Positions 19,059 through 21,988 of a stretch of DNA of 39,258 bases are shown piece by piece. The stretch lies in IMG/VR virus record IMGVR_UViG_2519899560_000023. One strand, 5' to 3'. Numbering within the stretch: position 1 is the first letter of the stretch; each line of letters starts with the position of its first letter. The position numbers were made by a program, and so were the translations under genes. The notes beneath the pieces are model-generated. The model searched no databases. It had not been told where the DNA came from and saw nothing but the letters and a program-made list of their open reading frames with translations. Source of the stretch: a virus. Lineage: Duplodnaviria > Heunggongvirae > Uroviricota > Caudoviricetes.

Positions 19059-20183
19059 ATGAAGACGAAAAACACGCCCAAACTTGCTTATGCCATTCTG
19101 AATGCCATCAGCCTGTCCGCAGACGGGGACGGTGACTGGTGTCAGATCATGCCAGCCGGTCGGGTAAAGGCCCGTGACGGTCGCCCGGAAAAACCGGCGG
19201 AAGGCTGGCTGATCAACCATGCAGCCGTTGAGCGCATGGTCTCCCGTGTTGTGGCGCTCAATCAGCCGGTGAAAATTGACTACAACCACCAGACCCTGAT
19301 TGAGGGACATCCGGCACCGGCTGCCGGTTTTGTGATGGCCTCACCGGAGAATTTTCGCTTCAGTGAAGAGCGAGGTTTCGAGGTGCGCCCGAAGTGGAAC
19401 CCTCCGGCCCTTGAACATCTGCGTAATAACGAATTCCCCTGGTTTTCACCGGTGATTGGCTATGACGAGAGCACCGGCGAACCTGTCGAACTTCGGATGC
19501 TGGCTATTACCGGTGACCCCGGTCTGACCGGCATGAATCCTGTCGCCGCACTGTCGGCGGATGACCTTTATAACGCCTTAAACCCTCCTTTAAAGGATAC
19601 CTCCATGAATGAGCAATTACGCCAGTTGCTGACGGCGCTCGGTCTGACCGTGGCTGACGGTGACGAATTTACGCCGGAGCTGGGCACGGCGGCGCTGTCT
19701 GCCCTCACCGGGATCAAAACCCGTGCGGATGCACACGACAACCTGAAAACACAGGTCGCCAGTCTGTCGGCAGAGCTGGAAACCGCAAAAGGCACACCGG
19801 CTGGCGGCATTATTGATCTGACGAAATACGTGCCCGTTGAAACGTATAACGCCCTGCGTACCGAATACGTTGCGCTGTCGGCGCAGCACGGCAGCACCAC
19901 GCTGGAGCAGGTGCTGGACAAGGCTGAATCCGAAGGGCGCATCTTCAAAAGCGAACGCGGCTATCTGGAACAACTGGGCGGGCAGATTGGCGTTGCGGCA
20001 CTTTCTGCACAGCTTGACGCCCGCCAGCCGGTTGCGGCCCTGACCTCTCTTCAGACCGACACCGTGACCGTGCCGGATAAAAAGACTGCCACCGCTGCGC
20101 TGTCGGCTGAAGATATCGCGGCCGCCAAACTGCTGGGTAAAACCGAAGCCGAGTTCCTGAAAATGAAAGAGGAAATGCAATAA
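19059..20183 (+). CDS. head protease/scaffold (Mu I-like)
   Basis: 374 aa; precedes major head gene. Confidence 0.75.
   Translation: MKTKNTPKLAYAILNAISLSADGDGDWCQIMPAGRVKARDGRPEKPAEGWLINHAAVERMVSRVVALNQPVKIDYNHQTLIEGHPAPAAGFVMASPENFRFSEERGFEVRPKWNPPALEHLRNNEFPWFSPVIGYDESTGEPVELRMLAITGDPGLTGMNPVAALSADDLYNALNPPLKDTSMNEQLRQLLTALGLTVADGDEFTPELGTAALSALTGIKTRADAHDNLKTQVASLSAELETAKGTPAGGIIDLTKYVPVETYNALRTEYVALSAQHGSTTLEQVLDKAESEGRIFKSERGYLEQLGGQIGVAALSAQLDARQPVAALTSLQTDTVTVPDKKTATAALSAEDIAAAKLLGKTEAEFLKMKEEMQ
19605..20183 (+). CDS. candidate nested scaffold protein (Mu Z-like) from in-frame internal start
   Basis: In-frame ATG at 19605 preceded by AAGGA; helical Ala/Leu/Glu-rich C-terminal half. 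Confidence 0.35.
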   Translation: MNEQLRQLLTALGLTVADGDEFTPELGTAALSALTGIKTRADAHDNLKTQVASLSAELETAKGTPAGGIIDLTKYVPVETYNALRTEYVALSAQHGSTTLEQVLDKAESEGRIFKSERGYLEQLGGQIGVAALSAQLDARQPVAALTSLQTDTVTVPDKKTATAALSAEDIAAAKLLGKTEAEFLKMKEEMQ

Positions 20184-21130
20184 TGCCTACCCCGATTACA
20201 CCGGCGATGATCACAGCCCTGATGACGGGCTACCGTTCTGATTTTCAGGCCGGGATGTCCATGGCCCCGTCGCAGTATAAAAAAATTGCGATGACCGTGC
20301 CCTCCACATCGAAATCCAACACCTACGGCTGGCTGGGGCAGTTCCCGCAGTTCCGTGAGTGGATCGGCTCCCGCGTCATCGAGAAGATGAAAGCCTATGG
20401 CTATGCCATCGTGAACAAAACTTTTGAAGGCACTGTCGCCATTAGCCGCGATGACTTCGAAGACGACAACCTCGGTATTTATTCCCCGTTGTTCCAGGAG
20501 ATGGGGCGCGCTGCGGCGGTACAACCGGATGAGCTGGTCTTTGCTGCCCTGCGTGACGGGATCAGTGCGGCCTGCTATGACGGTCAGAACTTCTTTGATA
20601 CCGAACATCCGGTTTACCCCAAAGTGGATGGCTCCGGGGATGCGCAGATGGTCAGCAATATGTTTGTGGCAAAAACCGGCTCTGTCGGCGCACAGGCTGA
20701 TTACAGCGGTCCGGCCTGGTATCTGCTTGACTGCTCCCGCGCGGTAAAACCGCTGATTTATCAGGATCGCCGTAAGGCTGAACTGGTTGCCCAGACCAAA
20801 GTCGATGAAGGTCGCGCATTCACCGATAACGAATTTGTGTTTGGTGCATCCGCCCGTCGCAATGTGGGCTACGGCTTCTGGCAGATGGCCTACATGATGC
20901 AGTCACCGCTGACGCTGGATGCACTGTGGCACGGCTGGTCAGCCATGCGCGAATTTACCGCTGACGGTGGCCGCAAACTCGGCATTAAACCCACCCATAT
21001 TGTTGTCCCCACCTCGCTGGAAAAACAGGCGGTGCAGCTGCTGGAGCGTGAACTGTTCGCAGACGGAAACGCAACCGTCTCTAACGAGATGAAGGGTAAG
21101 CTGGAGCTGGTTGTCGCGGATTATCTGTAA
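20183..21130 (+). CDS. major head subunit (Mu T-like)
   Basis: 315 aa; start overlaps I stop. Confidence 0.8.
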   Translation: MPTPITPAMITALMTGYRSDFQAGMSMAPSQYKKIAMTVPSTSKSNTYGWLGQFPQFREWIGSRVIEKMKAYGYAIVNKTFEGTVAISRDDFEDDNLGIYSPLFQEMGRAAAVQPDELVFAALRDGISAACYDGQNFFDTEHPVYPKVDGSGDAQMVSNMFVAKTGSVGAQADYSGPAWYLLDCSRAVKPLIYQDRRKAELVAQTKVDEGRAFTDNEFVFGASARRNVGYGFWQMAYMMQSPLTLDALWHGWSAMREFTADGGRKLGIKPTHIVVPTSLEKQAVQLLERELFADGNATVSNEMKGKLELVVADYL

Positions 21131-21173
21131 ACGGTGAGCCGGGCTTACGGCCCGGCCCCTGCGGAGGGCAAAT

Positions 21174-21572
21174 ATGAATGAACATCACACTGTGGCAGCA
21201 ACAGATGATTCAGGTCTTCAGGTCAGTGGTGACAATTCTGTCACGGTGCTGGCAGAAGTGCGTTGCAGTCGTTCGGCGTTTCGTCGTGCGGGGTTCCTGT
21301 TCACGCGTGGACGTCAGCAGGTTGAGGTCACCCCGGAGCAGCTTGCCCGACTGGAGGAGGAGCCATGCCTCACTGTGCGAATACTACAGACGTCTGCTGA
21401 TGATGCGGGGAGCGTGGCGGGTGTGGTTCATGCAGTGGCCGGTACAGATTTAGCCGAAGCCGAAGCCGAAGCCGAAGCCGAAGCCGAAGCCGAAGCCGAA
21501 GCCGAAGCCGAAGCCGGACAGGATGCTCCCCGGAAAAAGACCGGTAACAAAGCGGAACAGGCCCGTGCATGA
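21174..21572 (+). CDS. head-region protein (Mu gp35 position) with (Ala-Glu)10 repeat
   Basis: 132 aa; GGAGGG SD; stop overlaps next start (ATGA). Confidence 0.6.
   Translation: MNEHHTVAATDDSGLQVSGDNSVTVLAEVRCSRSAFRRAGFLFTRGRQQVEVTPEQLARLEEEPCLTVRILQTSADDAGSVAGVVHAVAGTDLAEAEAEAEAEAEAEAEAEAEAGQDAPRKKTGNKAEQARA
21453..21518 (+). repeat. perfect tandem hexanucleotide (GCCGAA)x10 plus one GCCGGA, in frame
   Basis: Counted directly; frame anchored to the downstream stop at 21570-21572. Confidence 0.95.
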
Positions 21573-21988
21573 ATTACGCCACTGAAACCGATATGCGGGC
21601 GCGTTACCGCGAGGATTTGCTCAGGCCGTTACTGGCTGTGCCCCGTTCGGATGAGCCGGACACGCGCAAGCTGAACCGGGCGCTGACAGATGCGTCAGCC
21701 CTTATCGACAGCTATCTGTCCGCCCGTTACACGTTGCCGCTGGAGGTTATTCCGGCCGTTCTTGTTCAGCACTGTTGCGCGATTGCCTTTTATTACCTGT
21801 GCGATCAGCGAGCCTCCGATCAGGCGCGTGACCGTTACCGTGAAGCGCTGGCCTGGCTGAAAGATGTCATGAACGGCAATGTGCCGGTCGGTGTGGATAC
21901 GAACGGTGCGGCCCCTGAATCCGGGGATTTACCACAGGTTCAGTCTGATGCAGCGGTATTCGGGCGCAACCAGAAGGGCTTCATATGA
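21569..21988 (+). CDS. Mu gp36-like head-tail connector protein
   Basis: 139 aa; conserved position. Confidence 0.6.
   Translation: MNYATETDMRARYREDLLRPLLAVPRSDEPDTRKLNRALTDASALIDSYLSARYTLPLEVIPAVLVQHCCAIAFYYLCDQRASDQARDRYREALAWLKDVMNGNVPVGVDTNGAAPESGDLPQVQSDAAVFGRNQKGFI

Follow-up and report, generated by a model that had tools for sequence, protein, structure and literature searches.

The typing marker EHC-5 of enterohaemorrhagic Escherichia coli is an in-frame (GCCGAA)n microsatellite in a Mu gp35/HI1506-type gene of a Mu-like prophage, with a probably near-neutral length polymorphism

The stretch of DNA analysed here (39,258 nucleotides, hereafter the window) comprises an entire Mu-like prophage from enterohaemorrhagic E. 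coli. Genes for the transposase, Gam and Mor are followed by those for the head and the contractile tail, and an invertible tail-fibre segment and com/mom close the series. In the head region, the gene for the protease gpI (19059–20183) lies upstream of that for the Mu-type major capsid protein gpT (20183–21130, + strand; PF10124, E 7e-119), which shares 53% identity with gp38, the major capsid protein of phage JBD30. Downstream of gpT are an open reading frame (ORF) of 132 amino acids (21174–21572, +), annotated in RefSeq as ‘HI1506-related protein’ (WP_001002056.1), and a gp36-type head-tail adaptor gene (21569–21988, +; PF07030) whose start overlaps the stop of the 132-residue frame (ATGA); gp37, DUF2635 and sheath genes follow. 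The 132-residue frame carries the repeat that is the subject of this report, and its place between the gpT and gp36 adaptor genes agrees with an initial annotation, which had assigned the repeat to a head-region gene. In E. coli O157:H7 FRIK804 the locus is identical over a 551-nt query around the repeat, and the prophage there adjoins prpE.

Between gpT and the repeat ORF lies a G+C-rich hairpin (21138–21168) with a 7-bp stem and a folding energy of -12.7 kcal/mol, including a small second hairpin. Mu has a predicted terminator at the equivalent position. The hairpin of the window is not followed by a T-run and was not flagged in a terminator scan.

The repeat is a perfect (GCCGAA)10 microsatellite at 21453–21512 (+), read in codons 94–113 as (Ala-Glu)10. 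A degenerate eleventh unit, GCCGGA (Ala-Gly), ends the array at 21513–21518, and the frame then continues into a short C-terminal tail, QDAPRKKTGNKAEQARA (21519–21569, +). The initial annotation had claimed ten perfect units at 21453–21518; the ten units are confirmed, and that span consists of them together with the GCCGGA unit. The tail had been described there as short and basic, and basic it is. At the DNA level the array is pure, with GCCGAA as its only unit and one codon pair used throughout without synonymous codons. Tandem Repeats Finder reports it at 21452–21516 with a period of 6, 10.8 copies, 100% matches and a score of 130, the next-best array in the window scoring 44. A regular-expression scan of the 39,258 nt found no second perfect hexamer array of at least three copies, and the chance expectation for the perfect GCCGAA array is about 2e-28. 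On neither strand does the repeat fold as well as its dinucleotide shuffles (z of +2.5 and +2.9). Reverse-strand ORFs that cross the repeat, encoding (RL)n and (AS)n, were dismissed as mechanical by-products, as RefSeq places no gene there.

The N-terminal part of the repeat-bearing protein belongs to a recognised family. Pfam FluMu_N (PF17891) matches residues 36–72 (35.1 bits; cut-off 25.8), and PHROGs assigns the protein to phrog_3622 (E 2e-78), a group in the unknown function category. The closest solved structure is that of HI1506, the gp35 of FluMu (PDB 2OUT), found with an E of 1.6e-4 from the single sequence and of 2e-12 from the family profile. AlphaFold2 predicts, at low confidence (mean pLDDT 50.5), a beta-alpha-beta-alpha-beta arrangement at residues 23–70 (strands 23–29, 46–52 and 66–70, helices 34–38 and 54–61), and a Foldseek search with this low-confidence model returned 2OUT as the top and only credible match (probability 0.98). 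Together these results place a folded FluMu_N domain at about residues 23–72 (21240–21389, +), in keeping with the folded N-terminal part proposed in the initial annotation. From residue 74 to the end the model has no secondary structure and pLDDT falls below 50, so that (Ala-Glu)n and the basic tail are predicted to lie in a disordered C-terminal extension that follows the FluMu_N domain.

The gene also keeps the family’s position, between the Mu-type major capsid and gp36 genes, in the order of Mu_34, Mu_35 and Mu_36. Mu gp35 (Mu_35, AAF01113; L003, 1456–1866) is the homologue at the same gene position. HI1506 and Mu gp35 share with the window protein the FluMu_N domain, the place between T and gp36 and a flexible segment after the N-domain. 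They differ from it beyond that segment. Most relatives have the N-domain, a variable linker of about 20–30 residues and a conserved C-terminal helical domain, LNxRIRDAxAxLDKxNPxHFTxxGxPKVxAVSxxLG, which HI1506 and Mu gp35 also carry. In the alignment this C-terminal domain is absent from the window protein, which instead ends after (AE)n and a tail of about 18 amino acids, with no room for more before gp36. By this alignment the window protein is an N-domain-only variant of the FluMu_N/HI1506 family. The earlier description of the repeat as a linker of changing length is supported: the spacer ahead of the basic tail does vary, as set out below. With the C-domain absent, it lies in a predicted disordered C-terminal extension rather than in a true inter-domain linker.

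Among the proteins collected, four multi-stretch matches (P0087, P0090, P0098 and P0099) are repetitive proteins and were discounted as spurious after inspection of P0090, P0098 and P0099. A scan of genome contigs with a short peptide pattern returned at least one distant locus. In P0084 (154 aa) the first 41 residues of the repeat protein are fused to an unrelated PF10076 sequence, suggesting that this copy of the prophage has undergone a large internal deletion.

The repeat proved to be a published typing marker. The primers for EHC-5, listed in the S5 Table of PMC10062581 for the Japanese 17-locus MLVA system, flank it exactly: the forward primer ATACTACAGACGTCTGCTGATGA matches at 21381–21403 (+) and the reverse primer CCGCTTTGTTACCGGTCTTTTTC at 21533–21555 (-), each with 0 mismatches and once in the window, giving an amplicon of 175 bp here. 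The GCCGAA repeat is thus EHC-5, already known as a tandem repeat and in routine typing use; locus and 6-bp unit are the same, and at the DNA level there is no difference. EHC-5 is part of the system of Izumiya et al. 2010 for EHEC O157/O26/O111 and is used by Japanese public-health laboratories (PMC10062581). In that data set most O157 isolates yield no product at EHC-5 (score 0) and the remainder score 2–14 (PMC10062581); its copy number differs among EHEC strains, with a null allele where the locus is absent. The null alleles are explained by the locus riding on a transposable prophage.

Other variable-number loci of O157 (O157-3, -9, -10, -17, -19, -25 and -37) are likewise short-unit, slippage-prone and different between close isolates (PMC10062581). 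EHC-5 is set apart from them by its location on a transposable Mu-like prophage, its absence from most strains and a chromosomal position that is not fixed. The primers of EHC-6 have no match in the window; that locus therefore lies elsewhere, probably on a different mobile element. EHC-6 too is mostly null in O157 and sometimes co-occurs with EHC-5, as in CEC18001 (10/10) and CEC18157 (14/18) (PMC10062581, S2 Table).

A literature search with all 12 rotations of the hexamer on both strands returned unrelated papers only, and one for tandem repeats or MLVA of Mu-like prophages in O157 or E. coli returned nothing relevant. In the literature searched, which did not extend to the original Izumiya 2010 paper, no discussion of the gene product or coding context of EHC-5 was found. 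What is added here is the tie between EHC-5 and the Mu gp35/FluMu_N family and, through it, the decoration protein of JBD30.

The initial annotation had predicted that units would be gained and lost without breaking the frame and had proposed a comparison of copy number across relatives. That comparison was made, and the number is clearly not constant. Of 5,426 complete E. coli genomes searched with the 551-nt query, 227 carry the locus. Unit counts were taken from the span of the best match per record in a spread sample of 57 records of complete genomes. Fifteen different unit counts between 1 and 16 follow from these spans, whose deviation from 551 nt is always a multiple of 6, with or without a further 9 nt. 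Alleles of a single unit are the most frequent (9 of the 57), and the ORFs that hold them are intact. Perfect units counted directly in fetched sequences number 1, 7, 10, 13, 14, 15 and 16. Among IMG/VR contigs, some of them from prophage lineages whose N-terminal parts share only about 86% identity, the range is 1 to 17 units, 17 being reached with interrupted units and perfect units numbering at most 16.

The closest comparison is that of the window with cattle strains 140, 139 and 118, which carry 10, 13, 14 and 15 copies, respectively, between flanks that align without a mismatch over 653 + 438 nt. The field isolates CEC18128 and CEC18136 likewise agree at the 16 other MLVA loci and score 5 and 9 at EHC-5 (PMC10062581). 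Throughout, the length of the repeat changes in steps of 6 nt and all full-length alleles are in frame, as had been predicted. The spans that differ by odd multiples of 3 are due to a second in-frame polymorphism, in the basic tail at 21546–21566, where the window has KAEQARA and many alleles have KAKQAKKARA (+9 nt). Point-mutated units also occur in protein variants (AG, EV, ES, AK and ET), and the GCCGGA unit has itself been expanded to (AG)3-4 in four alleles (P0001, P0002, P0005 and P0011).

The chromosomes of strains 118 and 139 (NZ_CP028665.1 and NZ_CP028620.1; L004 and L005) are both 5,453,897 bp long, yet EHC-5 has 15 and 14 units in them, and the capsid gene of strain 139 starts 6 nt later than that of strain 118. 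A compensating 6-nt difference must exist upstream, probably in another VNTR. Over the complete E. coli genomes the locus occupies 266 places: some genomes have 2–4 copies of it, for example NZ_AP042574.1 with four and several records with two, as is expected for a transposable prophage. Draft proteins and contigs often end in or at the repeat, among them P0055 (82 member sequences), P0062, P0063 and P0068 and contigs L012 and L015. Short-read assemblies seem to fail across long EHC-5 alleles, and copy numbers from drafts are likely biased to short alleles.

The purity of the DNA, the change by whole units and the separate expansion of GCCGGA argue for a process driven by mutation and not for selection of a peptide motif. 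Slipped-strand mispairing during replication of the lysogen chromosome or of the phage would account for these features. Hairpin-driven instability was considered and rejected on the folding results given above, and with no hairpin potential a simple misalignment is the likely route. Such events would change only the length of the acidic (Ala-Glu)n stretch, after the FluMu_N domain and before the basic tail; a unit of 6 nt leaves both the reading frame and the gp36 start overlap undisturbed. That intact ORFs span so wide a range of lengths, and that one-unit alleles are common, argues for a length that is tolerated rather than tuned, and the polymorphism is most likely near-neutral, a view drawn from the breadth of lengths in intact ORFs.

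A possible location for this protein in the virion comes from phage JBD30. In cryo-EM its gp39 was resolved on about five in 12 particles as a Soc-like minor capsid protein that forms trimers, with some 420 copies per head and a beta-tadpole fold (PDB 8RKC/8RQE; PMC11445458). The PDB names chain 8RKC_B a ‘Mu-like prophage FluMu N-terminal domain-containing protein’. A FluMu_N family profile built here aligns with gp39 in hhalign (probability 92.7%, E 4e-7; residues 27–72 of the window protein with 57–105 of gp39), and in a search of the whole PDB the family profile matched only 2OUT and 8RKC_B (the latter with an hmmsearch E of 1e-3). By BLASTP the window protein and gp39 are 37% identical over 49 amino acids (E 4e-4), and Pfam FluMu_N scores 22.5 bits on gp39, just under the cut-off of 25.8. 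With the low-confidence AlphaFold2 model as query, Foldseek did not recover 8RKC. As judged from these profile and pairwise alignments, the FluMu_N domain of the Mu gp35/HI1506 family is homologous to the resolved domain of gp39.

The conserved motif L-x-x-[DE]-P-x-L-x-V aligns in hhalign to residues 93–101 of gp39. The gp39 residues in contact with the capsid protein are Glu91, Ser95, Asp96 and Lys100 (PMC11445458), so the motif would cover the last three, with Glu91 just before it. The gp39 gene (L039, 2591–2932) lies directly after the JBD30 major capsid gene. The two proteins thus have in common a homologous domain, a gene directly after a Mu-type major capsid gene and a disordered extension flanking the fold. 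They differ in that the disordered part of gp39 is N-terminal (residues 1–52) and without a microsatellite, in that JBD30 is a siphophage, and in that capsid binding is known for gp39 and putative for the E. coli protein and Mu gp35. A role of the window protein in capsid decoration is plausible but unproven; if it holds, (Ala-Glu)n and the basic tail may project from the capsid surface.

Published work on Mu itself gives another picture. The 2025 cryo-EM study of this myophage saw no decoration proteins and did not locate gp35 (PMC11915804). Mu gp35 is entered in GenBank as a head-to-tail connector complex protein, and the cryo-EM paper treats it as unlocated and possibly connector-related (PMC11915804). 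The JBD30 paper (PMC11445458) makes no mention of HI1506 or FluMu, and the SuMu virion proteomics paper none of a gp35 homologue.

If the protein does sit on the capsid, the repeat could be more than tolerated. It could be an adaptive contingency tract, a surface acidic brush whose hypermutable length is favoured differently by surface charge, adhesion, antibody pressure or recognition by host defences. A pure expandable array is kept in prophage lineages about 14% divergent in the N-terminal part, and selection may be what preserves such a tract; alleles are very diverse, and the folded domain is homologous to a decoration protein present in about 420 copies per head. We nonetheless think this reading improbable. 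One-unit alleles are the commonest and leave the ORF intact, and the tract is thus dispensable for keeping the gene; most changes arise in the resident prophage, where a virion phenotype is hidden from selection; and the location of the repeat protein in the virion of this phage is inference only. Other O157 VNTR loci are, moreover, comparably diverse without a known function (PMC10062581). An on/off phase-variation switch was considered as well and rejected, as the 6-nt unit lies inside the ORF and every full-length allele is in frame. In the contingency loci of Haemophilus and Neisseria, repeat units that are not multiples of three, or that lie in promoters, switch genes on and off. Those loci and EHC-5 are alike as hypermutable tandem repeats in coding sequence that change by slipped-strand mispairing, and unlike in that EHC-5 varies in length without an on/off switch, the frame being always kept.

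Less probable still is selection for a given spacer length, in which a helical Ala-Glu rod, for instance, would fix the distance between FluMu_N and a basic tail bound to DNA or another partner. Most family members do have a linker of about 20–30 residues between the N-domain and the C-terminal domain, and two distal nucleic-acid binding sites have reportedly been proposed for HI1506. Against this, the family C-domain is absent from the window protein, AlphaFold2 predicts no helix in the repeat, and otherwise near-identical proteins have 1–17 units, a range of 32 residues, which argues that no particular distance is required. There is very little to recommend a signal at the level of the nucleic acid, be it mRNA structure for translational coupling to gp36 or a protein-binding array, with coding incidental. 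The ORF stop does overlap the gp36 start, and the repeat is about 55 nt upstream of that junction. But both strands fold worse than their shuffled controls, copy number varies freely, the array matches no repeated binding-site architecture, and the opposite strand has no annotated gene. Because several partial proteins (P0055, P0062 and P0068) and draft contigs (L012 and L015) are cut off within the repeat, an assembly or sequencing artefact might be suspected. The array is, however, present in hundreds of independent complete genomes and is routinely sized by PCR in MLVA (PMC10062581), and these PCR typing data refute an artefact, to which we give practically no weight.

We therefore favour, as the likely account of the locus as a whole, an in-frame EHC-5 microsatellite that changes by slippage and produces a near-neutral length polymorphism in an acidic stretch, predicted disordered, of a decoration-protein homologue. 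EHC-5 is used in fingerprinting outbreak strains of enterohaemorrhagic E. coli, and its high diversity is accounted for by the present data, since a pure 6-nt array slips freely and leaves the gene undamaged. The biological gain is modest, in that the marker is placed in a Mu gp35/HI1506-type protein of unsettled function, in a family linked by sequence to the capsid decoration protein of JBD30. If the link to JBD30 holds, the natural EHC-5 alleles would be a ready-made series of tail lengths for tests of function. It is a long shot that EHC-5 encodes a hypermutable acidic brush, borne in hundreds of copies on a Mu-like head, through which a population samples capsid charges and spacer lengths. 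Were it so, the locus would be a structural contingency locus on the virion, and the Mu gp35 family, unlocated in Mu, would gain a function.
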